NCBI GenBank assembly: GCA_028293375.1
Contig: JAQGOY010000228.1
Location: 1 to 51,586, forward strand
Length of the DNA: 51,586 bases
Source of the DNA: Verrucomicrobiales bacterium
GTDB taxonomy: Bacteria > Verrucomicrobiota > Verrucomicrobiia > Limisphaerales > JAQGOY01
Reading direction: 5' to 3'
Shown here: one piece after another, positions 17,716-50,435 of the stretch
How positions within the stretch are numbered: the stretch's first letter is position 1
How the letters are laid out: each line of letters opens with the position of its first letter
Notes under the pieces: model-generated
The model's database searches: none
The model's input: the letters and a program-made list of their open reading frames with translations, nothing else
What the model was told of the DNA's origin: nothing
Made by a program: the position numbers and the translations under genes

Positions 17716-17751
17716 ACTATAGAAAATTGGCGCGATCATTCACAATCAGGG
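17716..17751 (-). promoter_or_regulatory. Putative promoter of STAS-glycan operon: CCCTGA-TTGTGA-N18-TATAGT
   Basis: Read on minus strand; the 12-mer CCCTGATTGTGA is identical to the one upstream of the hybrid kinase. Confidence 0.6.
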
Positions 17752-17842
17752 GGCGGCATCTTTCCCCCTACGGGTCGTTGCCCCTATACGGAGTGAGCCA
17801 TTCCCCGGTGCGCGGTCAAACCGCTGCTAACACCCACAAATG

Positions 17843-17873
17843 AAAGGGGTTTTGCCAGCAGCAAAACCCCTTT
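17843..17873 (-). terminator. Perfect 13-bp hairpin, probable intrinsic terminator after the udk-sugar transferase unit
   Basis: AAAGGGGTTTTGC-CAGCA-GCAAAACCCCTTT, 23 nt after the 17897 stop; T-rich tail on minus strand. Confidence 0.7.
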
Positions 17874-17896
17874 AAAACAGGCCAAAACCCAATGTC

Positions 17897-19192: not shown

Positions 19193-19196
19193 TTTG

Positions 19197-19922: not shown

Positions 19923-19929
19923 ACATCTA

Positions 19930-20538: not shown

Positions 20539-20576
20539 CGCTCGTACATATGGCAGGTAATTCTCCTGCCAGAATC

Positions 20577-20612
20577 GTTATAACCGATCCTGGTAGATGG
20601 GTTCAATCAGGA
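20577..20612 (-). promoter_or_regulatory. Putative promoter of udk unit: TCCTGA-TTGAAC-N18-TATAAC
   Basis: Same CCYSA-TTG signature as other promoters in the window. Confidence 0.55.
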
Positions 20613-20672
20613 GTCAGGAGCGAAAATTTCCAAGGGTTTTCCCCTGTTGCTTCAGGGATTACATCAGCCGTG

Positions 20673-21887: not shown

Positions 21888-21979
21888 CCTGAACAGCATG
21901 GAGGCAATGGACTTCTCAGCCAAACGTGGAATGCCTTATAATGAGGTAGACACAAAGCTGAGAAATCGTGGCGATAGTT

Positions 21980-22014
21980 GCCCGATTGCTGAGCAACATC
22001 CGTGTTTCTAACCT
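21980..22014 (+). promoter_or_regulatory. Putative promoter of YqjD/E-like operon: GCCCGA-TTGCTG-N17-TAACCT
   Basis: CCYSA-TTG signature, 17-nt spacer, TAnnnT -10. Confidence 0.55.
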
Positions 22015-23187: not shown

Positions 23188-23222
23188 CACCGATTGTCGC
23201 GCTACAAGAGGAGTGGTTTAGT
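23188..23222 (+). promoter_or_regulatory. Putative promoter: CACCGA-TTGTCG-N17-TTTAGT (TGn-extended)
   Basis: One-mismatch version of the CCYSA-TTG signature. Confidence 0.4.
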
Positions 23223-23805: not shown

Positions 23806-23955
23806 ATGTTGTGGACAATTTGTGCAATTCTTATCGCCTTATGGCTCTTGGGACTCGTGACCTCATTCACTATGGGAGGTATGATTCACCTGCTTTTAAT
23901 AGCGGCTATAGTCGTCCTCATGGTCCGAATCTTAAGTGGCAATCGGACCATTTAG
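23806..23955 (+). CDS. lmo0937/DUF5670-family small membrane protein (49 aa, absent from ORF track)
   Basis: AAGGAGGT SD then MLWTICAILIALWLLGLVTSFTMGGMIHLLLIAAIVVLMVRILSGNRTI*. Confidence 0.9.
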   Translation: MLWTICAILIALWLLGLVTSFTMGGMIHLLLIAAIVVLMVRILSGNRTI

Positions 23956-23997
23956 CCGTGCGGCTCAGATTGTATCCGGAAATCCCCTACCACTATC

Positions 23998-24066
23998 TAG
24001 GGCCAATTCCCTAATACTTTCCGAGACTTAGCCCTGATTGTGAGCTCGGGGGAGTGTGTTTATATA
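23998..24066 (+). promoter_or_regulatory. Putative kinase promoter: palindrome TAGGG-N6-CCCTA plus CCCTGA-TTGTGA-N17-TATATA
   Basis: CCCT(A/G) at 23985, 24009 and 24032 (24 and 23 nt apart). Confidence 0.5.
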
Positions 24067-24075
24067 GGGCTTTCC

Positions 24076-27000
24076 ATGGAAGCCCAGAATAAAACCGAGA
24101 CCGGAACAGCGGCTGTAAGTAGAGTTGTGGCCGCCAAAAAACCTTCCCCTAAACCCACCGCGCGCAAGTCAAAACTCAGGCGCCAGGTCACTGGCAGCAG
24201 GAACACTCCAACGCCTGCGGTTATTTCCGTCTCGGCCACTTCCAGTTTGGAAAAAAAGGATTTACTGGCCGCTTTAGTCGCCCTGAGAAAGGGCGATTTC
24301 AATGTACGGCTGCCAGTTGATTATGTGGGGGTCGACGGAAAACTCGCGGACACTTTCAACGATATCATTGAGTTTAACCAGCGATTGAGCCGGGAACTCG
24401 AACGTATCAGCCGTGTCGTCGGTAAAGAAGGGAAGATATCTCAGCGCGTGGAGGTCGGGGAAGTCACCGGGCTTTGGAACACCGCCGTTAACTCTGTCAA
24501 CAATCTCATTGGTGATTTGGCCTACCCTATTAATGAGTTGGCGCGCGTGATCGGTGCCGTCGCCAAAGGCGATCTGGCCCAAAGCGTCGCCTTGGAAACC
24601 GATGGCAAACCGCTTCAGGGTGAATTTCTAAGAACCGCCAAAACCGTGAATACCATGGTGACGCAGCTCGCTTCCTTCGCTTCTGAAGTAACGCGCGTGG
24701 CACGCGAAGTTGGAACGGAAGGAAAGCTGGGCGGTCAGGCCAAGGTTCGCGGTGTCGCCGGTACCTGGAAAGACCTTACCGATAACGTAAACCTGATGGC
24801 CAGTAACCTGACCAGCCAGGTTCGAAATATTGCTACCGTGACCACCGCTGTCGCCAACGGCGACCTTGCCAAGAAGATTACGGTGGACGTGAAAGGCGAA
24901 TTCCTCGAGCTCAAAAATACCATTAATACCATGGTGGACCAGTTGCGCTCTTTCGCCTCTGAAGTGACACGTGTTGCCCGCGAAGTGGGAACCGAAGGCA
25001 AACTCGGCGGCCAGGCCCGGGTGGAAGGTGTGTCTGGAACCTGGAAAGACCTTACCGATAACGTCAATTCCATGGCCCGTAACCTGACAGCCCAGGTGCG
25101 TAACATTGCCGCCGTAACTACCGCGGTGGCCAATGGAGACCTTTCCAAAAAAATCACTGTCAATGTCCGTGGCGAAATTCTTGAACTCAAGGACACCATC
25201 AACACCATGGTGGATCAACTTTCATCCTTCGCTTCTGAAGTGACTCGTGTGGCCCGCGAAGTGGGAACCGAAGGCAAACTCGGTGGCCAGGCCCAGGTTA
25301 AAGGCGTTGCTGGAACCTGGAAGGATCTGACCGATTCCGTCAACCTTATGGCTGCGAATCTTACCGGCCAGGTGCGTAACATTGCTGATGTCACCAAGGC
25401 AGTCGCAAAAGGCGACCTCTCCAAGAAAATCACGGTCGATGTGAAAGGCGAAATCCTCGAACTGAAGAACACCGTCAATACCATGGTGGATCAGCTTTCA
25501 TCGTTCGCTGCTGAAGTAACCCGTGTGGCTCGCGAAGTCGGTTCTGAAGGCAAACTTGGTGTGCAAGCCGAAGTTAAAGGCGTGGCTGGAACTTGGAAAG
25601 ATCTGACGGACAACGTCAACGTCATGGCCAGTAACCTGACAGTGCAGCTACGTGACGTCTCCAAGGTCGCAACGGCCATTGCTACAGGCGACCTCAGCCA
25701 AAAAATCACGGTGAACGTCAAAGGTGAAATTCTGCAAATCAAGGACACCATTAATACCATGGTGGATCAGCTCTCCTCCTTCGCCTCGGAAGTGACTCGT
25801 GTGGCGCGCGAAGTTGGTTCTGAAGGGAAATTGGGCGTCCAGGCTGAAGTGCGCGGTGTCGCTGGTACCTGGAAGGATCTTACGGACAACGTGAATGTCA
25901 TGGCCAGCAACCTCACGGTCCAGCTTCGTGACGTCTCCAAAGTGGCAACTGCTATTGCCACCGGCGACCTGGGGCAAAAAATAACGGTTAATGTAAAAGG
26001 TGAAATTTTACAAATTAAAAACACCATTAATACGATGGTGGATCAGCTTTCCTCGTTCGCGGCGGAAGTGACCCGCGTGGCGCGCGAAGTGGGAACCGAA
26101 GGAAAACTGGGTGGCCAGGCGGAAGTGAAAGGCGTGGCCGGAACCTGGAAGGACTTGACCGACTCGGTGAACTTCATGGCGCGCAACCTGACGGACCAGG
26201 TGCGTAATATTGCGGATGTGACCAAGGCCGTCGCGGCGGGCGACCTCTCCAAGAAGATCACCGTCGATGTCAAAGGCGAAATTCTCGAACTCAAAAACAC
26301 CATCAACACCATGGTGGATCAGCTCTCTTCGTTCGCCTCTGAAGTAACCCGCGTGGCGCGCGAAGTGGGAACGGAAGGAAAACTGGGTGGCCAGGCGGAA
26401 GTGAAAGGTGTAGCCGGAACGTGGAAGGATCTCACCGATTCCGTGAATTTCATGGCCGGCAATTTGACCGGGCAGGTTCGTAACATCGCGGACGTGACCA
26501 AAGCTGTCGCCGCAGGCGACCTTTCCAAGAAAATTACAGTTAACGTTCGCGGTGAAATCGCGGAGCTTAAAGACACCATCAATACTATGGTGGATCAGCT
26601 CCGGTCATTTGCTTCTGAAGTAACTCGCGTGGCTCGCGAAGTGGGAACGGAAGGAAAATTGGGCGGCCAGGCGGAAGTGAAAGGTGTGGCCGGAACCTGG
26701 AAGGACCTTACGGATTCCGTGAATTTCATGGCCGGTAACCTCACCGGGCAAGTGCGTAACATCGCGGATGTGACCAAGGCTGTCGCCGCAGGTGACCTTT
26801 CCAAGAAGATCACCGTGGACGTCAAAGGCGAAATTCTCGAGCTCAAAAACACCATCAACACCATGGTGGACCAGCTCTCCTCATTCGCCTCTGAAGTAAC
26901 TCGCGTGGCGCGCGAAGTTGGAACTGAAGGCAAACTCGGCGGTCAGGCTGAAGTGAAAGGTGTGGCCGGTACTTGGAAGGACCTTACTGACTCGGTGAAT

Positions 27001-30000
27001 TTCATGGCGCGCAACCTGACAGACCAGGTGCGTAACATTGCGGATGTGACCAAGGCTGTCGCTGCAGGTGACCTTTCCAAGAAGATCACGGTGGACGTCA
27101 AAGGCGAAATTCTGGAACTCAAAAACACCATCAACACCATGGTGGACCAGCTCTCTTCATTCGCTTCTGAAGTAACTCGCGTGGCCCGCGAAGTCGGAAC
27201 CGAAGGCAAACTGGGTGGCCAGGCCGATGTGCGCGGCGTCGCCGGAACGTGGAAAGATTTGACCGACAACGTCAACTTCATGGCCAACAACCTCACGGAT
27301 CAGGTGCGTAATATCGCCGACGTGACCAAAGCGGTGGCAGCCGGGGATCTCTCCAAAAAAATCACCGTGAATGTGCGCGGCGAAATTTTGGAATTGAAAG
27401 ACACCATCAACACCATGGTGGATCAACTCCGCTCGTTCGCTTCGGAAGTAACCCGCGTGGCCCGCGAAGTCGGAACCGAAGGCAAACTGGGTGGCCAGGC
27501 AGACGTCAAAGGCGTCGCAGGAACATGGAAGGATTTGACCGACAACGTCAACTTCATGGCCAACAACCTCACGGATCAGGTGCGTAATATCGCAGACGTC
27601 ACCAAGGCGGTGGCGAACGGTGACCTTTCGAAAAAGATTACGGTCAATGTGCGTGGTGAAATTTTGGAATTGAAAGACACCATCAACACCATGGTGGACC
27701 AACTCCGCTCCTTCGCTTCTGAAGTGACCCGTGTGGCCCGCGAAGTTGGAACCGAAGGAAAATTGGGTGGCCAGGCCGACGTCAAAGGAATCTCAGGAAC
27801 CTGGAAAGATCTGACCGACTCGGTGAACTTCATGGCGCGCAACCTGACAGACCAGGTGCGTAACATCGCCGACGTCACGAAGGCCGTGGCGGCAGGGGAC
27901 CTTTCCAAAAAAATCACGGTCGACGTCAAAGGTGAAATTCTGGAATTGAAGAACACCGTCAACACCATGGTGGACCAGCTTTCTTCTTTTGCTTCTGAAG
28001 TAACCCGCGTGGCCCGCGAAGTCGGAACCGAAGGCAAACTCGGCGGTCAGGCCGAAGTGAAAGGTGTGGCCGGAACCTGGAAGGACTTGACCGATTCCGT
28101 GAATTTCATGGCAGGTAACCTCACCGGTCAGGTCCGTAATATTGCTGCCGTGACCACCGCCGTGGCCAATGGTGACCTTTCCAAAAAGATCACGGTGGAC
28201 GTGAAAGGTGAAATCCTTGAACTCAAGGACACCATTAACACCATGGTGGATCAACTCCGGTCCTTCGCCTCTGAAGTGACCCGTGTCGCCCGCGAAGTCG
28301 GAACCGAAGGAAAACTCGGCGGCCAGGCGGATGTGAAGGGCGTAGCCGGAACCTGGAAGGATTTGACGGACAACGTTAATTTCATGGCCTCCAACCTCAC
28401 CGCGCAAGTTCGTAACATTGCCGACGTGACCAAGGCAGTCGCTGCGGGTGACCTTTCCAAAAAGATTACAGTCGATGTTAAAGGTGAAATTCTCGACCTC
28501 AAAAACACTGTTAACACCATGGTGGACCAGCTCCGTGCGTTCGCTGCGGAAGTAACCCGTGTCGCTCGCGAAGTGGGAACGGAAGGAAAACTTGGCGGCC
28601 AGGCGGAAGTGCAGGGTGTGTCGGGAACGTGGAAGGATTTGACCGACAACGTGAACTTCATGGCCGGTAACCTGACCAACCAGGTCCGCGGTATTGCGAA
28701 AGTTGTGACCGCTGTGGCCAATGGCGACTTGAAACGGAAGCTGACGGTGGAGGCCAAAGGCGAAATCGCCGAACTGGCAGATACCATCAACGGCATGACT
28801 GATACACTGGCTATCTTTGCTGATCAGGTGACAACCGTCGCCCGCGAAGTCGGTGTTGAAGGAAAACTCGGCGGTCAAGCCAGTGTCCCCGGGGCTGCGG
28901 GAACTTGGCGCGATTTGACGGATAATGTCAATCAGTTGGCTGCTAACCTGACTACTCAGGTGCGCGCGATTGCGGAAGTGGCCACTGCCGTCACCAAAGG
29001 CGACCTCACTCGTGCTATTCAGGTCGAAGCTCAGGGCGAAGTCGCTGTGCTCAAGGATACGATCAATGAAATGATTCGTAACTTGAAAGACACCACTCTC
29101 AAGAACTCGGAACAGGACTGGCTCAAGACCAACCTCGCCAAGTTCACCCGTATGTTGCAGGGTCAAAAAGACCTTATCACGGTCGGTCGCCTGATTCTAT
29201 CCGAACTCGCTCCCGTGGTCTCCGCTCAGCATGGCGTCTTCTATATGATGGACAATGCTCGCGATGACCATCACTTGAAATTGTTGGCCAGCTATGCTTA
29301 TCGCGAAAGAAAGACCGTTCAGAATCGTTTCGTCATGGGCGAAAGCCTTGTGGGTCAGTGCGCATTGGAAAAAGAAAAAATCCTGCTGACCAATGTCCCT
29401 GCGAACTATATTCAGATCTCTTCGGGATTAGGTGAGGCTAAACCGTTGAACCTCATTGTCCTGCCCGTGCTCTTCGAAGGTCAGGTTAAGGCGGTGATTG
29501 AATTGGCCTCGTTTGATCGATTCAGCCCCACCCACCAAACCTTCCTGGATCAGCTCACGGAAAGTATTGGTATCGTCTTGAATACGATTGAAGCCAACTC
29601 CCGAACCGAAGATCTTCTCAAGCAATCTCAGTCTCTTGCCAAAGAACTTCAAAGCCAGCAGGAAGAACTGCAGCAGACCAACGCCGAGCTCGAAGACAAA
29701 GCAAAGCTCCTGGCCATGCAGAATGACGAAGTCGAACGCAAAAATCGTGAAGTCGAGCAAGCTCGTCAGGCACTGGAAGAAAAAGCTTCCCAGCTCGCCC
29801 TGACTTCGAAATACAAATCCGAATTCCTCGCGAACATGTCGCACGAACTCCGGACACCGCTAAATAGCTTGCTGCTTCTGGCTCGCCAATTGGTCGATAA
29901 CCCGGAAAAGAATCTTACTGGGAAACAGGTGGAATTCGCTAAAATTATCCATGGGTCTGGAAATGACCTGCTGGCCTTGATTAACGATATTCTCGATCTC

Positions 30001-31912: not shown

Positions 31913-31957
31913 TTGTATCGGTTGTAAAACTCATTGTATTAAATTAATCAACAAGTT

Positions 31958-32614: not shown

Positions 32615-32725
32615 GTCCATCTGATATTATCCAGGCGCTCATAAAACTTGAGCGCCTTTTGCTGGGCCTAGGGGATGCCCCGAAGCTGTTATCCCCTGCT
32701 TCCGCCTTTCCGGACTCCTGAGCCT

Positions 32726-32760
32726 CCCCGATTGCGATCTTTTCTGATTCCTCATCAAAT
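32726..32760 (+). promoter_or_regulatory. Putative promoter of second regulator: CCCCGA-TTGCGA-N17-TCAAAT
   Basis: CCYSA-TTG signature, extra CCTGA 10 nt upstream, TAGGG-N5-CCCGA at about 32669. Confidence 0.45.
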
Positions 32761-33569: not shown

Positions 33570-33604
33570 GCCTCATTGTGACCCGTTTGCCTCAGACCTA
33601 CCTT
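33570..33604 (+). promoter_or_regulatory. Putative leaderless promoter: GCCTCA-TTGTGA-N17-TACCTT-N5-ATG
   Basis: CCYSA-TTG signature; -10 ends 5 nt before ATG 33610; no SD. Confidence 0.55.
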
Positions 33605-33609
33605 TGGCT

Positions 33610-34805: not shown

Positions 34806-34823
34806 AATGTAAGTCTCATAATC

Positions 34824-40371: not shown

Positions 40372-41373
40372 ATGACCATCGAAGAACAAATCTCTCTTTT
40401 CCGATCCAGCTATTCACGGCTTCGCACCGAAATTGGCAAAGTGATCGTCGGCCATGAAAAAATAGTGGAGGGGACGTTATTTGCCATCCTCAGTGGGGGA
40501 CATGTTTTGCTGGAGGGAGTGCCCGGCCTCGGTAAAACGTTGCTCGTTCGTACTCTGAGCGAAGTCCTGGATCTTTCTTTTAATCGCATTCAATTCACCC
40601 CTGATCTGATGCCGGCTGACATCATCGGCACAAACCTGGTCATGGAAACTCCGGATGGCAAAAGAATCTTCCAGTATCAAAAAGGACCCATTTTCGCCCA
40701 CCTCGTCCTCGCCGATGAAATCAATCGCGCCACTCCAAAAACCCAATCTGCCATGCTGGAAGCCATGCAGGAAAAGAGCGTTACCGCAGGTGGTGAAATT
40801 CGCCGTCTTGATCCTCCCTTCTTCGTCCTGGCAACCCAGAATCCTATTGACCAGGAAGGTACCTATCCACTTCCCGAAGCACAGTTGGACCGTTTTTTCT
40901 TCAAACTCGTGGTCGGTTATCCCAGCGCTGCGGAACTGAATGAGGTTCTCTCCCGAACTACCGGTGGAACCACCGCCCAGGTCGAAAAAGTTTTATCGAA
41001 GGAAGAATTGATGGGCCTGCAAAAGCTCGTGAAGGATGTTCCAGTGGCCAACCATGTCCGGGACTTCGCCGTCCGCATTGTTTTGGCTACCCACCCGAAA
41101 ACCGAAACCGCATTGCCCGTTACCAATCAGTTCCTGCGGTTCGGCAGCAGTCCTCGCGGCGGTCAAACTCTCCTGCTCGCGGGCAAAGTCCGCGCACTGG
41201 CTGAAGGCCGATTTAATGTCTCCTTTGATGATATCATTGCCGTCGCTCCCCATGCTCTCAGGCATCGCTTGATTCTTAATTTCGAAGCCGAAGCAGAAGG
41301 AATTACGACAGATCACGTGATCGACCAGATCCTCGCGACGGTTCCAAAGGACAATGCGCTGCTCTCCAGGTAG
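40372..41373 (+). CDS. moxR: MoxR-family AAA+ ATPase
   Basis: EGVPGLGKT, RIQFTPDLMPAD, LADEINRA, ATQNP, YPLPEAQLDRF, GSSPR. Confidence 0.95.
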   Translation: MTIEEQISLFRSSYSRLRTEIGKVIVGHEKIVEGTLFAILSGGHVLLEGVPGLGKTLLVRTLSEVLDLSFNRIQFTPDLMPADIIGTNLVMETPDGKRIFQYQKGPIFAHLVLADEINRATPKTQSAMLEAMQEKSVTAGGEIRRLDPPFFVLATQNPIDQEGTYPLPEAQLDRFFFKLVVGYPSAAELNEVLSRTTGGTTAQVEKVLSKEELMGLQKLVKDVPVANHVRDFAVRIVLATHPKTETALPVTNQFLRFGSSPRGGQTLLLAGKVRALAEGRFNVSFDDIIAVAPHALRHRLILNFEAEAEGITTDHVIDQILATVPKDNALLSR

Positions 41374-41378
41374 TCGTC

Positions 41379-42275
41379 ATGAGTCAGCCCATCCTCAGCC
41401 TCGAACTGATGCGAAAGCTGGAGCAGTTTCAACTCACTGCTTCCCGCAAGGCATTCAGCTCGTTTAAAGGAGAACGGAGAAGTCAGGCTCGCGGAATATC
41501 CGTGGAGTTCGCCGATTTTCGAAACTACGTCGCTGGCGATGACTTCCGTTATCTGGATTGGAATTTATTCGGTCGTCTCGACCGTTTGTATCTCAAACTT
41601 TACGAGGAAGAGCGGGAATTGCCGGTTCGCATCTTCCTGGATTGCAGCAAGTCCATGGACTTTGGTTCACCCGCGAAGTTTGATTTCGCCAGGCAGCTGG
41701 GGGCCGCGATCGGTTACACCACCTTGGTCGGCTTTGACCGGGTGAGTTTTATTCCCCTTCCTTCCGAAGCGGGTGCCAGCTCGGTCGTGAGTTTCCTGCG
41801 GGCGTTGCGGGGACGCAAGCAGGTGCTTCCCTTCCTCAAATCGCTTGAACTTTTGAAGGCTTCCGGGTCACTCGCCTTCGATGCCGCATTGCGAAAAGCC
41901 GCACTGGAAACCCGCCAGGTCGGATTAGCCGTGGTCATTAGTGATTTCCTGGATCCCCAGGGCTACGCCGTCGGTTTGAATGCGCTCGTAGCCCGTGGTT
42001 TCAAGATTTTGGTCATCCAGGTGCTGTCGCCGGAAGAGTTGGACCCCAGCACTTTCGGAGACCTGCGGTTGATTGATTCCGAGACCGGTTCCATGCAGGA
42101 AGTGACCTTCGGGAAATACCGCCTGGACGCTTACAAAAAAACAGTGGCTAATTATTGCCAGGTACTAAGGGAGTTTTGTGGACAGCGGGGCATTGCTCAT
42201 TTCCTCTTTCCCAGCAACGCCAGCCTGGAGCAGGTTTTGCTCAAGGATTTTCGAAAGGCAAAAATTTGGGGATGA
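41379..42275 (+). CDS. DUF58 domain protein
   Basis: EFADFRNYVAGDDFRYLDWN, DCSKSM, ISDF; follows moxR. Confidence 0.92.
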   Translation: MSQPILSLELMRKLEQFQLTASRKAFSSFKGERRSQARGISVEFADFRNYVAGDDFRYLDWNLFGRLDRLYLKLYEEERELPVRIFLDCSKSMDFGSPAKFDFARQLGAAIGYTTLVGFDRVSFIPLPSEAGASSVVSFLRALRGRKQVLPFLKSLELLKASGSLAFDAALRKAALETRQVGLAVVISDFLDPQGYAVGLNALVARGFKILVIQVLSPEELDPSTFGDLRLIDSETGSMQEVTFGKYRLDAYKKTVANYCQVLREFCGQRGIAHFLFPSNASLEQVLLKDFRKAKIWG

Positions 42276-42294
42276 AACACCGGAGCCACAGGAA

Positions 42295-44130
42295 GTGAAG
42301 TTTTTATTGCCAGCGGCATTTTCGTTTGCAGCGACAATCCCCATTGTCGTGGTCTTTTACTTGCTCAAGCGTAAACGAACCGAAAAAATCGTTTCCAGCA
42401 CTTTGCTCTGGCAAAAATACCTCGCAGAAACTCAGGCCAGTTCTCCATTTCAAAAACTTAAAAATAATTGGCTTCTTTGGTTGCAACTTCTTTTCCTCCT
42501 TCTCCTGCTCTTTGCCACCGCTCGGCCCTATTTTTCAGGACACACTCAAAAATCGCAACTTCGCGTCATCATCCTCGACGCTTCTGCCTCCATGAAGAGC
42601 AGGGATGTCCTGCCGAACCGCTTTGAAAAGTCCAGGGCCGATGTCCTGACGTTGATCAACGGCATGTTGGACGATGACGAATCCATTTTGCTTCTGGTTT
42701 CATCCCGCCCGCAGGTTAAGGTTTCAGCTACTTCCAATAAAAGCGCGCTTCGCAAAGGCCTCGCCGATTCGGAGGCCACCGATGCCAGGACAGGGCTCAG
42801 TGAGGCGTTGAAACTTGCTGAGACATTGACCCGCGATCGTATCGGTTCTGAAATCCATCTTTTTTCGGATGGTGCAGTTAAAACCCTGGGTGAATTCGAA
42901 AATAAAGCGCTGAACGTTATTTACCACCAGGTCGGGGTGGGGAATAGGAATCTTGGAATCATCGGCCTCGATATTCGGGAGAATCCTGAAAACCGCGCCC
43001 AAAGGGCGGTTTATGTCAACGTGGCGAATTTTTCCACCAACTCCGAAACGGTCGTGCTCAAGCTTTCGCTCGATGGCAGGGAGATCAACCAGCAACCACT
43101 TTCCATAGCTGCCGGACAGACCGTGCCCAGTGTTTTTATCTCTTCTCAGGAAAAAGATGGGGTTTTTACCGTGTCGATTGATGCCGCGGACGATCTCGCC
43201 ACAGACAACAAGGCATCCATACCCAGCCTGATTTCGCGTCCCGTTAAGACTCTGCTCGTTACCAGGGGTAATCGCTTTTTGGAAAAGGCTTTGCGCGCCG
43301 CTCCGAATGTCGAATTGCAAGTGTCGGAGGATTTTGCCGGCAACCTCGTTCCATCACCGGATCTGGTCGTACTGGATAACGTGGTTCCAAAGGTATGGCC
43401 TGGGATCAACACTCTGGCTTTTCACGTCGATAATACAAATTGGTTTAATGTAATGGGGGTGACTCCGAACCCCGCGCTTGTCGATTGGAAAATGGCTCAT
43501 CCCGTCCTGCGCTACGCCAGCATGGATAATGTTCAAGTCGCCGAGACCATGACCATCAAGACCCCCGCCTGGGCCGAGGTCCTTGCCGAGTCGCAGCAGA
43601 CCCCCCTCATTCTTGCCGGTGAGGTGGACCGTCACAAAGCCATCTGGGTCGGCTTTGATAACCTGCAAAGCACCTGGCCACTTCGCATTTCTTTTCCCAT
43701 CTTCATTGCTAATTCTGTGAAATGGCTTTCTCCAAACAGCCTCGGCGCTGACTTGATGGTGAATGCCGGCGACCCATTCAGGCGCACTTTTTCGGAGCCC
43801 GTTGCCTCTTATGAACTTCGATTTCCAGATGGACACACCGCGAAATTTCAAAACGAAACCAATAGTTTCGAAGTGGTTGTTGGCGCCACTGACACCAGCG
43901 GCATTTATCGGTTGACCACCGGTACCAATCAACTTGATTTCACTGTCAATTTGTTAAACCCCGAGGAAAGCAACATCACCCCTGCTTCTGCACTGACTTT
44001 CGGCAAATTTACTAAAGTGGAAGCGACCCAAGCGACTCTCGGAAACAAGGAAATTTGGAAATATTTCACTCTTGCCGCGTTGTTCTTTCTTCTCTTCGAG
44101 TGGTGGTTTTATCACAGGAGGACCGCTTGA
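42295..44130 (+). CDS. BatA N-terminal + vWA domain membrane protein
   Basis: GTG start; IPIVVVFYLLKRKR, LQLL...ARP, ILDASASM MIDAS, FSDG, C-terminal TM ...EWW. Confidence 0.87.
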   Translation: MKFLLPAAFSFAATIPIVVVFYLLKRKRTEKIVSSTLLWQKYLAETQASSPFQKLKNNWLLWLQLLFLLLLLFATARPYFSGHTQKSQLRVIILDASASMKSRDVLPNRFEKSRADVLTLINGMLDDDESILLLVSSRPQVKVSATSNKSALRKGLADSEATDARTGLSEALKLAETLTRDRIGSEIHLFSDGAVKTLGEFENKALNVIYHQVGVGNRNLGIIGLDIRENPENRAQRAVYVNVANFSTNSETVVLKLSLDGREINQQPLSIAAGQTVPSVFISSQEKDGVFTVSIDAADDLATDNKASIPSLISRPVKTLLVTRGNRFLEKALRAAPNVELQVSEDFAGNLVPSPDLVVLDNVVPKVWPGINTLAFHVDNTNWFNVMGVTPNPALVDWKMAHPVLRYASMDNVQVAETMTIKTPAWAEVLAESQQTPLILAGEVDRHKAIWVGFDNLQSTWPLRISFPIFIANSVKWLSPNSLGADLMVNAGDPFRRTFSEPVASYELRFPDGHTAKFQNETNSFEVVVGATDTSGIYRLTTGTNQLDFTVNLLNPEESNITPASALTFGKFTKVEATQATLGNKEIWKYFTLAALFFLLFEWWFYHRRTA

Positions 44131-45047
44131 CCGGTAATTTTAGATGGTTCATCTTTTTGCTCGCCGCCAGTTTGTTTTCGGGCTGTGGCAGGGGGTCCAA
44201 TGAGGTGATTCTTTACACTTCGCAGGACCAGGTTTTTGTCGAGCCGTTGTTGAAGAAATTTCAAGCCGATTCCGGCATCATTGTCAGGTCTGTCTTTGAC
44301 AACGAATCGGTGAAGACCGTTTCACTGGTCAATCGTCTCCACGCGGAAAAGGGTAATCCACAATGCGATTTGTTCTGGAATAACGAATCCTTCCGAAGCT
44401 TCCAACTTGCCCAGGAGGGCCTCGTCGATCCCCGTTACCCCGTTAAAACCTTTGGGTTCAGGACCAGGCGCATTGTTGTCCACGATCCCCCTCCCGCAGG
44501 TTTTGAAATTCCTTCCAGCTTCAGGGATCTGACCAACAAAAGTTATTTTGGAAAAATTGGGTTTGCTTATCCCATTTACGGAACCACCGGAACTCACTTT
44601 CTCGCCCTGCGACAGCAATGGGGAACCAACGCATGGCTGCAGTGGTGTCAGGCTCTCCAGGCCAACAAACCCTTCATTGTGGACGGTAATTCTGCCGTCG
44701 TGCGCCTTGTTGCCTCAGGAGAAATCTGGCTGGGTATGACTGATTCCGACGATATCGCTTCCGCCCGTGAGGAGCATGTTCCTGTGAAAGGGCTTCCGCT
44801 GAGCGTCGATTCTTTGCGCATTCCCAATTCCATTGCTCACATTGCAGGAGCGCGTCATGTCGAGAACGCAGAAAAGCTGGCTTTATTTCTTCAACTTCCC
44901 GAAACCATCGCTGCTCTTCAGGAAGCACACGCTTTGGAAAAGGAAGGGCAGGGGACCACCGGTTTGTCATCGCCGCCCGATTTCCAACTCATGTTGGCCG
45001 ATTTAAAAACTGCGACAGAGCAGATGCTCCAATTATTTAAAAAGTGA
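44127..45047 (+). CDS. ABC substrate-binding lipoprotein, Fe3+ (FbpA/AfuA)-like
   Basis: TTGA overlap start; lipobox LFSGC; YTSQD, AEKGNPQCD, GTTGTH, TDSDD. Confidence 0.85.
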   Translation: MTGNFRWFIFLLAASLFSGCGRGSNEVILYTSQDQVFVEPLLKKFQADSGIIVRSVFDNESVKTVSLVNRLHAEKGNPQCDLFWNNESFRSFQLAQEGLVDPRYPVKTFGFRTRRIVVHDPPPAGFEIPSSFRDLTNKSYFGKIGFAYPIYGTTGTHFLALRQQWGTNAWLQWCQALQANKPFIVDGNSAVVRLVASGEIWLGMTDSDDIASAREEHVPVKGLPLSVDSLRIPNSIAHIAGARHVENAEKLALFLQLPETIAALQEAHALEKEGQGTTGLSSPPDFQLMLADLKTATEQMLQLFKK

Positions 45048-47416
45048 CTTGGACATCCACCATCAACAGCCTGTTAGTGGCGGCCAGTTCCGCAGGAATG
45101 GCCACCCTGCTCGGTTTGATTGCTGCCATGTCTGCCGCCAGGTATCCGCGCGCGGGGAAAGCCCAACAATTTGCCTGGTGCCTTATACTTGCCTTGCCGC
45201 CCTTCTTCGTCACCAGCGGTTGGCTTTATTTCTTTGGATTTACCGGTGAGTTCAAATCTTTTCTACCTTTTAATTTATTCAGCCTTTCGGGCTTGACCTC
45301 CATTCTCGTTTTTCTCTACTGGCCCGTTGCCGCCTGGATTTTCCATCGTCGTCTTCCTGCGCTTGCGCCACCGTATTGGGAATGGGAAACTCATTGGACT
45401 CTCTTACGGTTTTGGCGCGTCGTCCTCTTGCCTTTCCTGCGTCCTGCTTTCGCTACATCATTTTTAATAATCTTTGTCTTGTCGATTACCCAGTTCAGCG
45501 TCCCTTCACTCCTCCAGGTCAAAGTCTTGCCCGAAGATGTCTGGCTCCGCATGAACGCAGATCTCAATTATAAGACCGCTGCCCTGCTCCTGTGCCCCAT
45601 GTTGATTTCCATTGCCCTGGTTCTTTACTCCATTAATAAATTTGGAATATTTAAAGGCAGTAATTTCGCCACCTCGGGCGTTGCTGCTCTCCCTCCGGGA
45701 ATGGTTCCTGGGTTGTTCCAATTCATTGCCTGGGGCGCAATTGTTGTTTCGGTATTCCTTCCTGTGGCACCCGTGGCGGGGTCCCTCCAGACCTGGCTGT
45801 CGCTTCGCTCCGCGCTCATCGCGAATATCGCGCCCCTTACCTTGTCCATTCTCACCGCCATCCTCGTTCCCCTCCTCATTTTTTGTTGTTCCCGGGTCCT
45901 CTCAGGGCGCTGGATGGTTCATCTCTCCGCGTTGCTCTTCCTCGCTCCAGGTCTCGCCATTGCCTGGGTTTTAATCGTCGTCTTTAATCGCCCCGTGCTC
46001 GGTTGGTTTTACCCCAGCCTCGGTTGTGTTTTTTTATGTCTTATCATTAAATACTCCGCACCTCTGATTTTTGGAGATTTTCTGGGAATACGCACGAATC
46101 TGAAAAGCCACCTCGCTCTCCTCGATATGGAAGGCGCTGGAAAGGTGAAGGCGAATTTGCTCCTCGCTCCGCTTGCCTTCCAGGAACTCCTCGGCCCCAT
46201 GATTGTCACCGCTTTGCTTGTCATCTGGGATGTTGAAACCGTCGTCATGATCATGCCCCCCGGTCGCGAGACTCTCTCCTTGCGCGTGTTTAATATGCTT
46301 CACTACGGCCACAATAGCCAAATCAATGCCATCGGAGTCATTTTGATGGGTGGAGCTTTGTTCACCGCTGGCATTCTTATCTGCCTGCAACTTTTTTGCC
46401 GGCGCTTTTTTCACCGGATTTTGGTCCGTTGTTTTTTGGTGGTTCTCACCCTGTTCAGTTTTTCGTGTTCCCCCAAAAATGAAACTTCTGCCGCAACGGG
46501 TTCTCCCATCCATAACAGTAAATTATTCAGTGCTGTCCAAATCATCGGTGGCAAGGGAGCCGGGGCCGGTCAATTTAATAAACCCCGATCTGTGGCCGTC
46601 GACGACAATGACAATCTCTACGTCGTCGACATGACTGGTCGCGTCCAGAAATTTGACGATCACGGGTTGTATTTGAGCAGTTGGCAAATGCCCCAGACTG
46701 ATCTCGGCAAACCCAAAGGCATGTGCATCGACCAGGCCGGGAATCTTGTCCTGGTGGAGCCGCACTATTCCCGGTTGAATTACTTCTCCAAAACGAACAG
46801 TTCACTTCTCGCCCAATGGGGTGTGCACGGAACCAATGATGGCCAACTCGCTTTCCCTCGTTCAGCCACTGTTCTTGGAGATGGCCGGACATTCGTCACA
46901 GAATACGGTCAATGCGAACGCGTCTCCTGTTTTAGTGCTTTCGGTTCCCGGTTTCTTTTTTCCTTCGGAACTCCCGGCGATGGCCCTGGCCAGTTTAATC
47001 GTGCTGAAGGCGTTTGTTCCGACTCCAGGGGCATGCTCTACATCGCAGACTCCTGCAACCATCGTGTCCAGATTTTCAATTCCGATGGCAAATTTGTTAG
47101 CGCCTTCGGCAGTCCTGGCAGGGATCCCGGCCAGATGAACTATCCCTACGATGTTCGCGTCGATGCGGAAGGCTATTGTTTTGTCTGCGAATTCGGCAAC
47201 AGCCGCATCCAGGTATTCAAGGGTTCGAATGTTCCAGTGGAAGTCATCGGGCGTGGCGGCAGTGAACCCGCTGAATTTTCCAACCCGTGGAGCATCGCCC
47301 TCGATAAGCATGGCAATTTATTTGTGGCTGACGCCATGAATCACCGGGTTCAAAAACTCTTGAGAAAACACGAAAGCGCCAGCCGGCAGGCAATGGAGAA
47401 AAAACAAGCTCTGTGA
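45044..47416 (+). CDS. ABC-permease-like membrane domain (two halves) fused to C-terminal NHL-repeat beta-propeller
   Basis: NSL...LPPF..., PPGRETLSLRVFNMLHYG; NHL repeats FNKPRSVAVD, FPRSA, YIADSCNHRVQIF, FVADAMNHRVQK. Confidence 0.82.
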   Translation: MTWTSTINSLLVAASSAGMATLLGLIAAMSAARYPRAGKAQQFAWCLILALPPFFVTSGWLYFFGFTGEFKSFLPFNLFSLSGLTSILVFLYWPVAAWIFHRRLPALAPPYWEWETHWTLLRFWRVVLLPFLRPAFATSFLIIFVLSITQFSVPSLLQVKVLPEDVWLRMNADLNYKTAALLLCPMLISIALVLYSINKFGIFKGSNFATSGVAALPPGMVPGLFQFIAWGAIVVSVFLPVAPVAGSLQTWLSLRSALIANIAPLTLSILTAILVPLLIFCCSRVLSGRWMVHLSALLFLAPGLAIAWVLIVVFNRPVLGWFYPSLGCVFLCLIIKYSAPLIFGDFLGIRTNLKSHLALLDMEGAGKVKANLLLAPLAFQELLGPMIVTALLVIWDVETVVMIMPPGRETLSLRVFNMLHYGHNSQINAIGVILMGGALFTAGILICLQLFCRRFFHRILVRCFLVVLTLFSFSCSPKNETSAATGSPIHNSKLFSAVQIIGGKGAGAGQFNKPRSVAVDDNDNLYVVDMTGRVQKFDDHGLYLSSWQMPQTDLGKPKGMCIDQAGNLVLVEPHYSRLNYFSKTNSSLLAQWGVHGTNDGQLAFPRSATVLGDGRTFVTEYGQCERVSCFSAFGSRFLFSFGTPGDGPGQFNRAEGVCSDSRGMLYIADSCNHRVQIFNSDGKFVSAFGSPGRDPGQMNYPYDVRVDAEGYCFVCEFGNSRIQVFKGSNVPVEVIGRGGSEPAEFSNPWSIALDKHGNLFVADAMNHRVQKLLRKHESASRQAMEKKQAL

Positions 47417-50274
47417 AGTTTTATTTTTCAAATCCAATTTGGTTGTGGGCGCTGATCCCTGTTTTGGGTTGGGTCTGTTGGTTTGGGCTTCGTTCGTCAC
47501 TTTCTCTTTCCCCATGGCGCAAGGCCCTTTCCATTGCGTTGCGAATCATTATTGTTCTCCTCGCCTTGTTCGCTCTTGCCGGACTTCAATTGCAAAAGCC
47601 CATCGAGGGCATGAATACTTTTTATCTCCTGGATCGCTCCCAAAGCGTCCCGTTCGCCCAGCAGGAGGCCGCCCGCCTCATGGTCATCAGGCAAATCTCT
47701 CAAAAAAAACCGAATGACAAGGTGGGTGTCGTGGTTTTCGGGGCGGATGCCGCCATTGAGAGTTCCGTCTCCCCAGTGCTTGGCCTCGATAAAATTCAAT
47801 CCGTCATCAACGCCAACGGAAGCGATATTGGCGCCGCGCTGCGTCTGGCTTCCGCCGCGTTCCCGGAAGCAGGTCAAAAGAAAATGGTGCTCTTCTCTGA
47901 CGGAAACGAAAACCTGGGGGATGCGCTTTCCGCAGTGGTTTCGGCCCGCCCCCTCGGTGCCACCCTCGACATCGTTCCACTTGGATCCGCTCGGGCTCAT
48001 GATGTTGCCGTTGAAAAAATTGCCCTGCCTCCCAATCTGAAAAAGGGCCAGACTTTTGATGTTAAGATTTTTCTGAAAAGTGATGCCGCCACCAGGGCGA
48101 ATCTGCGCTTGTTTAAAAACGAGCAGTTACTTGGAGAACAACAGGTCGACCTGAGTGAAGGAAAAAATCTCTTCACCTTTCCCCAGGAACTGGCGGATCC
48201 CGGCTTTTACCAATATTCCGTCCAGGTGGATGTAGCAGGGGACGTTGTTCCTCAAAATAACCACGCTTCCGCCTTCGCCAATGTCAAAGGTGAACCGCGA
48301 ATTTTGGTAATTTCTTCCGACCCCTCAAAGGACGCGCCCCTCGCCAAAGCTTTAATTTCTGGAAAACTCGAAGTACGCATGGGAGGAATCGAACTCTTTC
48401 CAAAATCGCTGGCGGAAATGAACAGCTACGATTCCATTTTCCTAAGCAATATTGGGGCAGGGGAAGCGAGTCGTGAATCATGGCAACTCCTGGAGAGCGC
48501 CGTCCGCGATTTCGGCGTGGGTCTTGTCTGCCTCGGCGGAGATCAAAGTTACTCTGCCGGTTCTTATCGCGGAACTCCCCTCGAGGACACTCTGCCTGTC
48601 AGCATGGACCTTAACAGTAAAAAGGTGCTTCCTTCAGGAGCACTGGTGCTGGTCGTGCATGCCACAGAATTTCCCAATGGGAATCAGTGGTCCCGCGATA
48701 TCGCCTTCGCAGCTTTGAATGGTCTGGGACCTCTCGATGAAATGGGAGTTGTCTTATGGAATGGCACCGATCAATGGCTCTTTCCCCTTCAAAAGGTCGG
48801 AGACAAGAAAAAAATGGGTCAACTGATTTCCGGGATGACGCCCGGCGATATGCCCAGTTTCAAAAACGTCATGAAAATGGCTTACACCGGCCTCAAAGAT
48901 TCGAAAGCTCACCTGAAACACATGGTCGTTTTCAGCGATGGCGATCCTGGCCGTCCCGATGACTCGGATATCCAGGACATTGTGAATGACAAAATCACTA
49001 TCAGCACCGTGATGATCGGTGGCCATACCGCTCCCGATAACATGGTCATGATGGCCAACGCAGGACACGGGCAATTCTATGATGTCCGTTCTGCGGAAGT
49101 GCTGCCTCAGATTTTTATCAAGGAATCGGCTGTCATCCTGAAGAGCGCCATCTTTGAAGAGCCTTTCATTCCCAAACTCGTCCAGGCTTCCGAACTCGTC
49201 CAGGGCATCGCCGCTGCTGAATATCCCGAACTGCAGGGATATGTTTGCGTCACTCCCAAGGGGCGCGCCGAGATTCCTCTGGTCTCCGACAAGGGCGACC
49301 CCATTCTTGCCCACTGGCAGTTTGGACTTGGCCGCTCCGTGGCCTACACTTCCGACGCCAGGGCCAAGTGGGCTCGAAACTGGCTCGATTGGGCCAAATA
49401 CCAGCAATTCTGGACTCAAGTGGCTCAATGGAGTTTGCGCAGAATTGAAAATAGTGAGTACAACACGGATATTAATATTGAAAAAGGAACCGGGAAATTG
49501 AATGTCGAAGCCCTCGATAACCAGGGTAACTTTCGTAATTTCCTCGATCTTCAAGCCCTGGTGGTCGATCCAAAGGGCCAGAAACAAACCGTCCGGCTTG
49601 AGCAAACAGGTCCTGGCCGCTACGAAGTAAATTTTCCTGGCCGCGAAGTTGGTTCCTACCTCGTAAATCTCGTCTCATTGAAGGATGGCAAGGTGCTTTC
49701 CTCACAGGCCTTGGGAGCCAGCGTGAACTATTCACCGGAATTCGCTTCCGCCGATCCCAATTTCAATCTCTTGCAAAGGCTGGCCGATGCGGGCGCCGGC
49801 AAAATCCTCCTTCCGGAGGAGAATCCCTTCCTCCTTGGCCGGAAACGAACATTTCAACCTCTGGATCTCCTCACTTTCCTCCTCAAGTGCGCCCTGGTCC
49901 TGTTCCCTCTGGATGTGGCCATACGCAGGATTCATTTGGATCGCTCCGATTGGGCGCTTTTCCTCGCTGGTTTACGCAATCGATTGTTCTGGAAAAGGGC
50001 TAAGCCTTCCGTAGCCTCGGAGGAAAACATGGGTTCGTTGCTGGCCAAAACAAAACAAACACGCGATCGCACCTCCTCGGCCCCGGCCATCGATCCCAAA
50101 CTGTTCGTCCCTAAGGCAGCCCCAAAAGATGTGCCACTCCCCTCATCTGTGCCAAAAGTTCCCCAGCAATCCTCCCCGGTGGAACTTTCCAAACCATCCA
50201 CACTGGTCCCCCCGCCTCCCTCCACCGCTTCAGCGCTTCTGGAAGCAAAGAAACGGGCTAAAAAGAAATTATAG
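47413..50274 (+). CDS. Membrane-anchored vWA + GATase1-like + vWA protein
   Basis: LLDRSQSV MIDAS, FSDGNEN, GLVCLGG..SY..G.Y..TPLE..LPV, PILAHWQFGLGRSVAYTSD, W...W..Y..FW; Pro-rich tail. Confidence 0.85.
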   Translation: MKFYFSNPIWLWALIPVLGWVCWFGLRSSLSLSPWRKALSIALRIIIVLLALFALAGLQLQKPIEGMNTFYLLDRSQSVPFAQQEAARLMVIRQISQKKPNDKVGVVVFGADAAIESSVSPVLGLDKIQSVINANGSDIGAALRLASAAFPEAGQKKMVLFSDGNENLGDALSAVVSARPLGATLDIVPLGSARAHDVAVEKIALPPNLKKGQTFDVKIFLKSDAATRANLRLFKNEQLLGEQQVDLSEGKNLFTFPQELADPGFYQYSVQVDVAGDVVPQNNHASAFANVKGEPRILVISSDPSKDAPLAKALISGKLEVRMGGIELFPKSLAEMNSYDSIFLSNIGAGEASRESWQLLESAVRDFGVGLVCLGGDQSYSAGSYRGTPLEDTLPVSMDLNSKKVLPSGALVLVVHATEFPNGNQWSRDIAFAALNGLGPLDEMGVVLWNGTDQWLFPLQKVGDKKKMGQLISGMTPGDMPSFKNVMKMAYTGLKDSKAHLKHMVVFSDGDPGRPDDSDIQDIVNDKITISTVMIGGHTAPDNMVMMANAGHGQFYDVRSAEVLPQIFIKESAVILKSAIFEEPFIPKLVQASELVQGIAAAEYPELQGYVCVTPKGRAEIPLVSDKGDPILAHWQFGLGRSVAYTSDARAKWARNWLDWAKYQQFWTQVAQWSLRRIENSEYNTDINIEKGTGKLNVEALDNQGNFRNFLDLQALVVDPKGQKQTVRLEQTGPGRYEVNFPGREVGSYLVNLVSLKDGKVLSSQALGASVNYSPEFASADPNFNLLQRLADAGAGKILLPEENPFLLGRKRTFQPLDLLTFLLKCALVLFPLDVAIRRIHLDRSDWALFLAGLRNRLFWKRAKPSVASEENMGSLLAKTKQTRDRTSSAPAIDPKLFVPKAAPKDVPLPSSVPKVPQQSSPVELSKPSTLVPPPPSTASALLEAKKRAKKKL

Positions 50275-50401
50275 GTGTAAGGAAAAAGGCAGTTCTTTCG
50301 GGGTATCTTTACCCTAACTCCCCTCCGCGCCTTGGCTTAACCCTCAACAGGGATTTCTTAAGGCTTTCCGTACTCCTCATTGATCGGGCAAACAGCTTTT
50401 C

Positions 50402-50435
50402 TCCCCATTGAGAGAGGTCCTATCAGGTCTAAGTT
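50402..50435 (+). promoter_or_regulatory. Putative leaderless promoter: TCCCCA-TTGAGA-N16-TAAGTT-N6-ATG
   Basis: CCYSA-TTG signature, second copy TCCTCATTG at 50374; no SD before ATG 50442. Confidence 0.5.

Follow-up and report, generated by a model that had tools for sequence, protein, structure and literature searches.

Does a short word shared by several promoters of one bacterial contig mark a regulon, and which protein would read it? The question is raised by a stretch of 51,586 nt from a Verrucomicrobiales bacterium (Verrucomicrobiota, order Limisphaerales in the GTDB lineage; assembly GCA_028293375.1, contig JAQGOY010000228.1), which as a whole is called the window here. The window is contig C160 of a metagenome-assembled genome (MAG) of 4.12 Mb in 281 contigs that is 75.6% complete. 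Among the genomes compared, this MAG is the sole member of its own family, and its nearest relatives belong to other families of the same order. A sequence-only reading of the window had pointed to the word CC[CT][CG]ATTG (CCYSATTG) upstream of a STAS-domain operon, the uridine kinase gene udk, a yqjD-like DUF883 gene, a hybrid histidine kinase gene, a response regulator gene (NarL2) and genes for a secreted protein and a lipoprotein. It proposed a regulon that is read either by the NarL-type regulators NarL1 and NarL2 encoded behind the kinase or by an alternative sigma factor. Judged by the comparison of promoters across genomes, CCYSATTG is a real and conserved cis-regulatory element beyond chance, and this conclusion draws on its recurrence at orthologous promoters and not on counts within the window. 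The reading that we favour, with a little less than an even chance, is a small, clade-specific and autoregulated two-component stress regulon in which an activator of NarL type would bind a half-site abutting the −35 element.

Verrucomicrobiota are an abundant soil phylum with few cultured members. A conserved promoter word leads to a testable regulon and to a short list of candidate readers. The present word ties a kinase, a NarL pair, a partner-switch module and hallmark stress proteins together across about twenty MAGs. It also permits annotating stress promoters in metagenomes of this clade, which gives an entry to stress regulation in an uncultured soil lineage.

All eight exact copies proposed for the window are present at the positions and on the strands listed in Table 1, as are the one-mismatch copy ACCGATTG at 23189 and the stretch described as identical before the STAS operon and the kinase gene, CCCTGATTGTGA. 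The eight exact intergenic copies are all in sense with the following gene, lie 31–94 nt ahead of its called start and occupy 7 of about 13 upstream regions in a hand-made gene list. The proposed −10-like boxes TATAGT, TATAAC, TAACCT, TACCTT and TAAGTT are found 19–21 nt past the G of TTG, and the kinase, YflT and NarL2 promoters add TATATA, TTTAGT and TCAAAT, respectively. The word is absent before the MFS gene, moxR and the last gene, as had been described.

Recurrence of the word at orthologous promoters

Orthologous loci were collected by a metagenome scan with NarL1 (80 loci) and a genome scan with NarL2 (48 loci). NarL2 orthologues are defined by 68–75% identity and come from MAGs of Verrucomicrobiota/Limisphaerales plus two with other labels; L151 and L152 were excluded, as they hold no upstream DNA. 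Of the 20 NarL2 orthologues, 17 have the exact motif in sense in the 200 nt ahead of the match, and none has it in antisense. Four 8-mers are expected in 200 nt at a rate of about 1%. For homologues of at most 57% identity to NarL2, the corresponding counts are 0/17 in sense and 1/17 in antisense. The metagenome contributes 10 loci of NarL2 or NarL1 type with at least 68% identity and an exact copy, of which L064, L066 and L067 are near-identical, and two more loci (L102 and L126) of lower identity. Three metagenome loci of NarL1 type (L051, L055 and L052) carry an exact copy about 140 nt upstream. The upstream flanks cannot be aligned with each other, which argues that the motif is conserved by selection rather than by recent descent.

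The other targets were sought in the 21 genomes holding NarL2 orthologues. An orthologous STAS operon is found in seven of them, and six of the seven carry the exact motif 82–109 nt ahead of the STAS ATG, followed by 21 non-conserved bases and then by TATAGT (four cases), TATGCT or TATCCT. The YflT protein is 64–87% identical in NarL2-bearing genomes. By eye, 8 of the 15 upstream regions listed for its orthologues contain CCYGAT[A/G/T]G (in one case CCGGATGG and in one CCTAATTG), then 19–20 nt and a T[A/T]nnnT box. Since some of these variants have TAG or TGG for TTG, CCYGAT is kept where TTG is not. Several other YflT orthologues sit behind a BON gene in an operon. For DUF883 homologues, with loci of less than 150 nt of upstream DNA excluded, a relaxed motif of 12 variants is present within 250 nt upstream in 12/30 cases in sense and 4/30 in antisense, with about 1.4/30 expected by chance, and most of the homologues with the relaxed motif have a TAnnnT box about 20 nt further on. 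Taken together, the recurrence of the word before the orthologues of NarL2, STAS, YflT and DUF883 and before the gene that follows NarL2, with its orientation and its spacing to a −10-like box unchanged, supports the putative regulon across the window.

The gene after NarL2 deserves separate mention. Directly past NarL2, eight orthologue loci carry an exact motif, and six of these have CCYCATTG followed by a TAnnnT box 5–10 nt ahead of an ATG. The remaining two are L146, which belongs to the G subclass, and L150, which lacks a nearby ATG. At L146, the exact motif stands between NarL2 and what gene order suggests to be the beginning of a kinase orthologue, matched in its C-terminal part only. 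The fourth base of the motif is C in seven of the eight loci, just as it is at 33571, 50375 and 50403 before the secreted protein and lipoprotein genes of the window. The promoters of the STAS, udk, DUF883, YflT, kinase and NarL2 genes have G at this place, as do those of nearly all their orthologues. These two flavours may match the two paralogous regulators, with the C subclass belonging to the second.

Gene order is conserved in part as well. The order YflT, small membrane open reading frame (ORF), NarL1, NarL2, lipo145-like and sec340-like gene is found in L064, L066 and L067, where a 59%-identical counterpart of the small membrane ORF sits between YflT and NarL1. YflT adjoins NarL1/NarL2 in L133, L135 and L148, and a kinase with 54–55% identity to the C-terminal part of the window kinase lies near NarL2 in L088, L146 and L147. 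The cluster itself is syntenic, since L262 (G047:C172) and L263 (G042:C8), from two related MAGs, each have a DUF883 gene at some 5 kb from the orthologous STAS operon, on one contig with it but on the other strand, which matches the layout of the window.

The window by itself proves nothing. In an enumeration of every 8-mer with two 2-fold-degenerate positions, run on the 22 auto-called upstream regions of the window (150 nt closest to each gene), the top pattern is CC[CT][CG]ATTG, with 7/22 regions and a binomial probability of 5.9e-8. This striking figure is equalled by 16% of the control blocks: 14 of 87 blocks, each made of 22 neighbouring upstream regions, give an equal or smaller best p, and the window-only p is thus about 0.16 after the post-hoc choice. 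By raw count, 3 of 38 control blocks reach seven regions. The gene caller missed udk, which leaves the window one region short, and the same defect affects the control blocks. In the whole window the word is not enriched: its 17 copies compare with an expectation of 11.1, and this number is reached in 4 of 100 shuffles. The earlier estimate of under one hit by chance holds for a word that is named beforehand; it ignored the post-hoc choice and the size of the pattern space and was too optimistic.

Genome-wide there are 608 copies, 74 of which are sense-intergenic by a crude gene caller, 9 of these on C160 (one of them, at 42339, located at a gene overlap). The sense-intergenic share of the word is 0.122, compared with 0.062–0.106 for permuted control words, and 40 of 1950 auto-called upstream regions carry the word in their last 150 nt. 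A chance origin of the word, picked out after the fact by a pattern search over ordinary −35 TTG boxes and with no function of its own, would fit the control blocks, the lack of enrichment in the window and this small excess in intergenic share. The explanation is nevertheless very improbable, since the word was specified in advance for the orthologous promoters and recurs there in non-conserved surroundings.

Promoter geometry and upstream half-sites

In a profile built from 43 non-identical, motif-aligned sites, T occupies +28 in 31 and +33 in 30 of them, with A or T in between, which places a −10 hexamer 17 bp past TTGnnn behind an information-free spacer. An A-rich block at −13..−9 and a GGG..TTTCC block at −32..−22 are also visible in this profile. 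By its geometry, the TTG of the motif opens the predicted −35 hexamer of a sigma-70-type promoter with a 17–18 bp spacer and a TAnnnT-like box. The layout is that of group 1/2 promoters, with a TTG-led −35 element, a TAnnnT-like −10 box at 16–18 bp and the sense orientation of the gene, and CCYSA immediately precedes TTG at every site, as a fixed-distance site that abuts −35. The composite of the word and T[A/T]nnnT is found in 15 sense upstream regions (5 on C160) versus 6 in antisense, out of 1950. Genome-wide, TTG-N16-TAnnnT and TTG-N17-TAnnnT in hexamer spacing are enriched in sense over antisense (181 vs 104 and 147 vs 74, respectively). The bases before the TTGs of these promoters show no preference for CCYSA, and therefore the prefix is not a general promoter feature of the organism.

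A −10 box of extracytoplasmic function (ECF) type (CGT-like) or of SigB type (GGGTAT-like) with a short spacer was not found at the motif sites, where the box is T[A/T]nnnT at 17–18 bp past TTGnnn. The element is thus not a SigB-, ECF- or sigma-28-type promoter, because neither the −10 box nor the spacer fits. For sigma-28 (FliA/WhiG), of which the genome encodes a member, the −10 consensus GCCGATAA is similar to CCCGATAG and CCCGATTG. In contrast to that consensus, the motif is one base longer (CCYGAT vs CCGAT), a conserved TAnnnT box follows 20 nt downstream and no TAAA is present 15 nt upstream, so that the reading of the motif as a sigma-28 −10 element was rejected. Readings as a sigma-32 −10 element (CCCCATNT) or as a sigma-54 element were dropped for the same geometric reason, as the −10 box lies downstream. 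An inverted repeat ATC-N-GAT between the A-rich block and the motif was dropped because its spacing varies from 6 to 12.

Two of the window promoters would leave little room for a leader. Between the −10-like box and an in-frame ATG there are 5 nt at sec340 (33599-33612) and 6 nt at the lipoprotein gene (50430-50444), and the predicted transcripts would therefore be leaderless or nearly so. A genome-wide comparison of strand-asymmetric k-mers in all upstream regions gave no enriched Shine-Dalgarno word ahead of genes; T/C-rich words were the only ones enriched, and no promoter word was among them.

Extra copies of the half-site CCCTGA cluster upstream of the promoters in both orientations. An inverted 6-nt half-site with at most one mismatch occurs at −70..−10 in 31 of 64 promoters, compared with 14.4 in shuffles and 15 of 64 in a downstream control, with a peak near −35. 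A direct copy in the same range is found in 37 of the 64, the shuffle control having been computed for the inverted copies only. This set excludes L086, and it excludes L150 from the class downstream of NarL2. Palindrome-like blocks (CAGGGATTCCCCG, AGGGGAATCCCC and similar) are present in many of the 17 NarL2-orthologue promoters and before a third NarL2-like gene of the genome on contig C250. There is no partner half-site within 10 bp of the motif, and the positions of the palindromes vary among the kinase, udk and NarL2 promoters. Tandem copies of the motif are found at 50375/50403 and before the BON gene at C190:4092.

Two further upstream blocks were observed. The promoters of the STAS orthologues L262–L265 share a conserved block TTTCAGGTTTACGCTGAGAA (TCAG-N7-CTGA) about 35–57 nt upstream of the motif. 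YflT orthologues have TCAGCAGTTTTACGG at a similar place. The block contains an inverted CCTGA.

Candidate readers of the motif

The occurrence of the motif follows that of NarL2. Among 40 family-level relatives, G029 alone has a NarL2 orthologue (75% identity), while the others do not exceed 58%. In NarL2-less relatives, none of eight STAS promoters (L002–L009 of order-level relatives, which are not alignable) has an exact motif, L002 having the loosely similar CCTTGATGAGGAATGATC, which was not counted. The DUF883 homologues of these relatives show the relaxed motif in 2/27 cases in sense and 2/27 in antisense, which is the level of chance. YflT of NarL2-less relatives mostly lies behind a BON gene in an operon, with its promoter outside or at the edge of the 1.5-kb flank. 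Motif and NarL2 therefore co-occur, with 6/7 versus 0/8 for STAS and 12/30 versus 2/27 for DUF883. The genes themselves would fit autoregulation: the motif or a close variant stands before NarL2, the kinase and the C250 paralogue, and regulators of REC + GerE type are encoded within the putative regulon. NarL1 has a doubtful one-mismatch copy ACTCATTG at 31929 in the window, where a normal −10 box and leader do not fit. A terminator-like hairpin directly after NarL1 implies that NarL2 probably has a separate promoter.

We propose the following mechanism. CCYSA, at best cCCYGA, would be the half-site of a GerE/NarL-type activator placed directly against −35, and the candidate readers are NarL2 and/or NarL1, which presumably receive their phosphate from the hybrid kinase with the HAMP array encoded next to them. 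Binding would involve both the proximal half-site and the copies or palindromes 20–40 nt upstream (TAGGG-N6-CCCTA, CAGGGG-N4-CCCTTG), and the bound regulator would contact sigma region 4 and the C-terminal domain of the RNA polymerase alpha subunit (alpha-CTD). Predicted to be switched on are the regulator's own gene and the kinase gene in positive autoregulation, the STAS/RsbW-PP2C partner-switch operon, the yqjD-like DUF883 operon, YflT and udk, and two secreted proteins or lipoproteins. The STAS operon looks like a target because it carries the motif itself. Outside the window, the top sense matches of a position weight matrix (PWM) include genes for a LigD Prim-Pol, a DUF892 protein, a BON lipoprotein, a DUF1328 protein and an SRPBCC protein, and the targets likely include the BON lipoprotein and the LigD Prim-Pol gene. 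Roughly, the window holds about one third of the detectable regulon. We take DUF883, PF07332, YflT, DUF892, BON, DUF1328, SRPBCC and LigD Prim-Pol to be families of the RpoS, SigB and EcfG general stress responses. Of the earlier proposals, the activator half-site read by NarL proteins is the one to be favoured, as the motif tracks NarL2 and both extra half-site copies in either orientation and tandem copies occur. The implied autoregulation is less clear for NarL1 with its doubtful copy in the window.

The earlier alternative, an extended −35 element read by a sigma factor that the STAS switch releases, is weakened. In this explanation the whole word would be recognized by a group-2-like or a clade-private ECF sigma, perhaps freed by the STAS/RsbW-PP2C switch, and the NarL genes would be members of the regulon and not its readers. 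The fixed orientation and the 17–18 bp to a −10-like box at all conserved sites would suit it, and so would the A-rich block 5–9 nt upstream, which resembles an UP element. The genome encodes two RpoD/RpoS-like (group-2-like) sigmas of 339 and 322 aa and has at least 39 sigma-70 region-2 matches. The parts of a partner switch, namely STAS, an RsbW-like kinase domain and a PP2C phosphatase, are all present in the STAS and HATPase_c_2-GAF-SpoIIE module of the window, and the gene content resembles the SigB and RpoS regulons. The sigma genes themselves count against this explanation. The 300 nt ahead of each of the 33 sigma genes with a gene call are free of the motif (a call is missing for 6 of the 39 matches); variants at one position occur 190–299 nt upstream of 5 of the 33, and none is promoter-like in place. 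None of the 39 matches is on C160, and the partner-switch operon, which continues with the genes for REC and DHH-CBS-DHHA2 proteins, comes without a cognate sigma gene and bears the motif itself. In a phyletic test that covers the two group-2-like sigmas, the C10-type sigma has orthologues of 61–85% identity in 40/40 relatives, whether motif-bearing or not, whereas the C23-type sigma has a scattered distribution, with no orthologue found in G029, a genome that carries the motif (96% complete). Among five non-ECF candidates, no sigma of SigB/F/G type reaches the NCBIfam cut-off, and the best such match is FliA/WhiG.

The promoters, too, are at odds with a sigma element. Bases upstream of −35 are contacted by an activator or by alpha-CTD, and sigma region 4.2 makes few base contacts there. 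CCYGA lies upstream of the −35 hexamer, and taking CCYGAT as the −35 element would result in a 22-bp spacer. The extra copies in both orientations and the tandem copies are unexpected for a sigma element. The exchange of TTG for TAG or TGG in YflT orthologues that keep CCYGAT and the TAnnnT box, which is not of ECF type, also count against it. We regard a sigma factor as a possible reader, on the unlikely side.

Another clade-private DNA-binding protein could regulate NarL genes and stress genes alike. The link to NarL2 is a contrast of a single clade, as it would be for any clade-specific gene, and a palindrome typical of GerE-type proteins is not what the proximal half-site looks like. Against such a protein, NarL1 and NarL2 are the only regulator genes conserved beside the targets among the loci examined, the motif or a near match to it precedes three paralogous NarL genes, and the upstream GGG...CCC palindromes resemble the sites of DosR and other dimers of the NarL family. 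We consider it unlikely that the reader is a protein of this sort.

Several observations weigh against an activator of NarL type and against a regulon of defined size, in addition to the control blocks described above. The proximal element is a lone non-palindromic half-site at fixed distance and orientation, as a core-promoter element would be, whereas dimers of GerE type as a rule require a pair of half-sites. Distal copies are degenerate and differ in position by gene class, an inverted upstream copy is found at only one of the window's own eight sites, and the set of 64 includes 5 sites from close kin or near-identical contigs. That motif and NarL2 occur together contrasts one clade with the rest, and kin are not independent; its weight is therefore modest, and any clade-private factor, an ECF sigma included, would show the same. 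At its present completeness, the MAG may lack a motif-bearing sigma gene. A genome PWM trained on sites outside the window fails to separate sense from antisense: the antisense maximum is 18.4 bits, and among the sense scores only STAS (24.1 bits) and C228:2025 (21.7 bits) exceed it. Because of this overlap, the regulon cannot be delimited by sequence and its size is uncertain. The stress flavour of the regulon is a judgement on about ten genes.

Beyond the autoregulated regulon, a wider scheme could be drawn for the clade. Its general stress response as a whole would be run by a two-component system and not by an alternative sigma, with a HAMP-array kinase, two NarL paralogues, a CCYGA flavour for cytoplasmic stress genes and the system's own genes versus a CCYCA flavour for secreted proteins, and the STAS module as an output. 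We hold this wider scheme to be doubtful.

Known systems and gene content of the locus

The arrangement resembles a class II autoregulated response-regulator regulon, and its nearest analogue may be DosR/DevR. DosR/DevR of Mycobacterium tuberculosis is a NarL-family regulator of a dormancy regulon with GGG...CCC palindromes near or over −35. The likeness lies in a REC + GerE regulator encoded beside a kinase, in the apparent positive autoregulation, in a few dozen or fewer targets of stress or dormancy type and in the G-rich GGG...CCC palindromes. In contrast to DosR/DevR, a single half-site (cCCYGA) is fused to the TTG of −35 instead of a 20-bp palindrome. The kinase here is a hybrid of 2599 aa with a HAMP array, there are two or three paralogous regulators, and the system belongs to another phylum and is known from sequence alone.

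Other systems share individual traits. The boxes of class II activators (PhoB pho box, PhoP box and the LuxR lux box at −42.5) likewise have a fixed orientation and −10 distance and touch −35, and some promoters of YflT type have a weakened −35 element (TAG, TGG), as in that class. The class II boxes consist of two half-sites in 16–20 bp, whereas here one invariant half-site of 5–6 nt has its partner copies 20–40 nt upstream. With the SigB regulon and its RsbV/RsbW/RsbU switch of Bacillus and Listeria, the locus shares YflT, the small membrane ORF, STAS, and the RsbW-like kinase and PP2C domains. It differs in the promoter, which is TTG-N17-TAnnnT and not GTTT-N12-14-GGGTAT, and in a partner-switch operon that bears the motif. 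The RpoS regulon of Escherichia coli offers DUF883 proteins of yqjD/elaB type, a yqjE-like PF07332 protein, an osmY-like BON protein, a yciF-like DUF892 protein and near-housekeeping promoters, to which the two group-2-like sigmas may be added. RpoS selectivity is located around −10 and not in a CCYGA before −35, and the group-2 sigma is order-wide while the motif is confined to the tested NarL2-bearing genomes. A literature search at the level of titles and abstracts found nothing on the motif or on a Verrucomicrobiota stress regulator or regulon.

Table 1. Coordinates of promoters, palindromes and genes (window contig C160 unless another contig is named)
Feature	Position	Strand	Description
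STAS-operon promoter	17716..17750	minus	CCTGATTG (17750-17743), 21-nt spacer, TATAGT (17721-17716)
STAS protein	ATG 17648	minus	100 aa
Partner-switch protein		minus	598 aa; HATPase_c_2 + GAF + SpoIIE; STAS-operon gene product
Further STAS-operon members		minus	REC protein, DHH-CBS-DHHA2 protein
udk promoter	20577..20611	minus	CCTGATTG (20611-20604), 21-nt spacer, TATAAC (20582-20577)
Distal palindrome, udk	20631..20646	minus	CAGGGGAAAACCCTTG, about 20 nt upstream of the motif; candidate full operator
Sugar-transferase genes and uridine kinase gene (udk)		minus	
DUF883 operon promoter	21981..22014	plus	CCCGATTG, 20-nt spacer, TAACCT (22009-22014)
DUF883 operon		plus	DUF883 (yqjD-like) gene, then PF07332 gene, then 106-aa ORF
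YflT promoter	23189..23222	plus	ACCGATTG (one mismatch), 20-nt spacer, TTTAGT (23217-23222)
YflT-domain protein gene		plus	Between DUF883 operon and small membrane ORF
Small membrane ORF	23806-24014	plus	About 69 aa, two hydrophobic stretches, AGGAGG ahead; between YflT and kinase promoter
Distal palindrome, kinase	23998..24013	plus	TAGGGCCAATTCCCTA, 20 nt upstream of the motif
Hybrid-kinase promoter	24033..24066	plus	CCTGATTG, 20-nt spacer, TATATA (24061-24066)
Hybrid histidine kinase	24077-31875	plus	2599 aa; 16-17 HAMP repeats, GAF, HisKA, HATPase_c, three REC
Additional one-mismatch copy	31929..31936	plus	ACTCATTG, 22 nt ahead of the NarL1 ATG; doubtful
NarL1	31958-32614	plus	REC + GerE/LuxR helix-turn-helix response regulator
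Terminator-like hairpin	32634-32660	plus	GGCGCTCA-N7-TGAGCGCC, then TTTT; directly after NarL1
Distal palindrome, NarL2	32669..32683	plus	TAGGGGATGCCCCGA, upstream of NarL2, past the hairpin behind NarL1
NarL2 promoter	32727..32760	plus	CCCGATTG, 20-nt spacer, TCAAAT (32755-32760)
NarL2	32791-33468	plus	REC + GerE/LuxR helix-turn-helix response regulator
sec340 promoter	33571..33604	plus	CCTCATTG (C subclass), 20-nt spacer, TACCTT (33599-33604), in-frame ATG 33610
Small ORF	34686-34806	plus	About 39 aa with a single hydrophobic stretch; within the 284 nt that precede the MFS gene; hairpin and T-run behind; missed by the gene caller
MoxR/VWA operon	40372-50274	plus	MoxR AAA_3 ATPase, then VWA proteins including a 953-aa VWA-GATase1_like protein; no motif ahead
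Upstream tandem copy	50375..50382	plus	CCTCATTG, 28 nt ahead of the second copy; -10 box absent at the right distance
Lipoprotein promoter	50403..50435	plus	CCCCATTG, 19-nt spacer, TAAGTT (50430-50435), ATG 50442
Third NarL2-like gene	G000 C250:103-762	minus	66% identity; TCAGGGGAATTCC ... GAAAC ... CCTGATAT-N19-TATTTT; final G to T
BON-domain lipoprotein gene	G000 C190:4092-4595		Two relaxed copies at 4014-4045, 23 nt apart (CCTGATGG, CCCGATAG); second then 19 nt, TAATTT

A few gene assignments need comment. The longest ORF of the kinase begins with GTG 24040 within the motif; ATG 24077 is the likely start codon, judged by coding statistics and by the layout of the promoter. The best NCBIfam matches of NarL1 and NarL2 are MctR, NarL, UvrY and similar regulators, all under the equivalog cut-offs. 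The small membrane ORF may be 'lmo0937-like'. The 340-aa (sec340) and 145-aa (lipo145) proteins matched no Pfam or NCBIfam family, and their signal-peptide and lipoprotein labels are readings of the N-termini by eye. Elsewhere in the genome, a bpX4 gene of the MoxR-vWA-beta-propeller system at C196:7215 has a PWM score of 14.8 bits with GCTGATTG.

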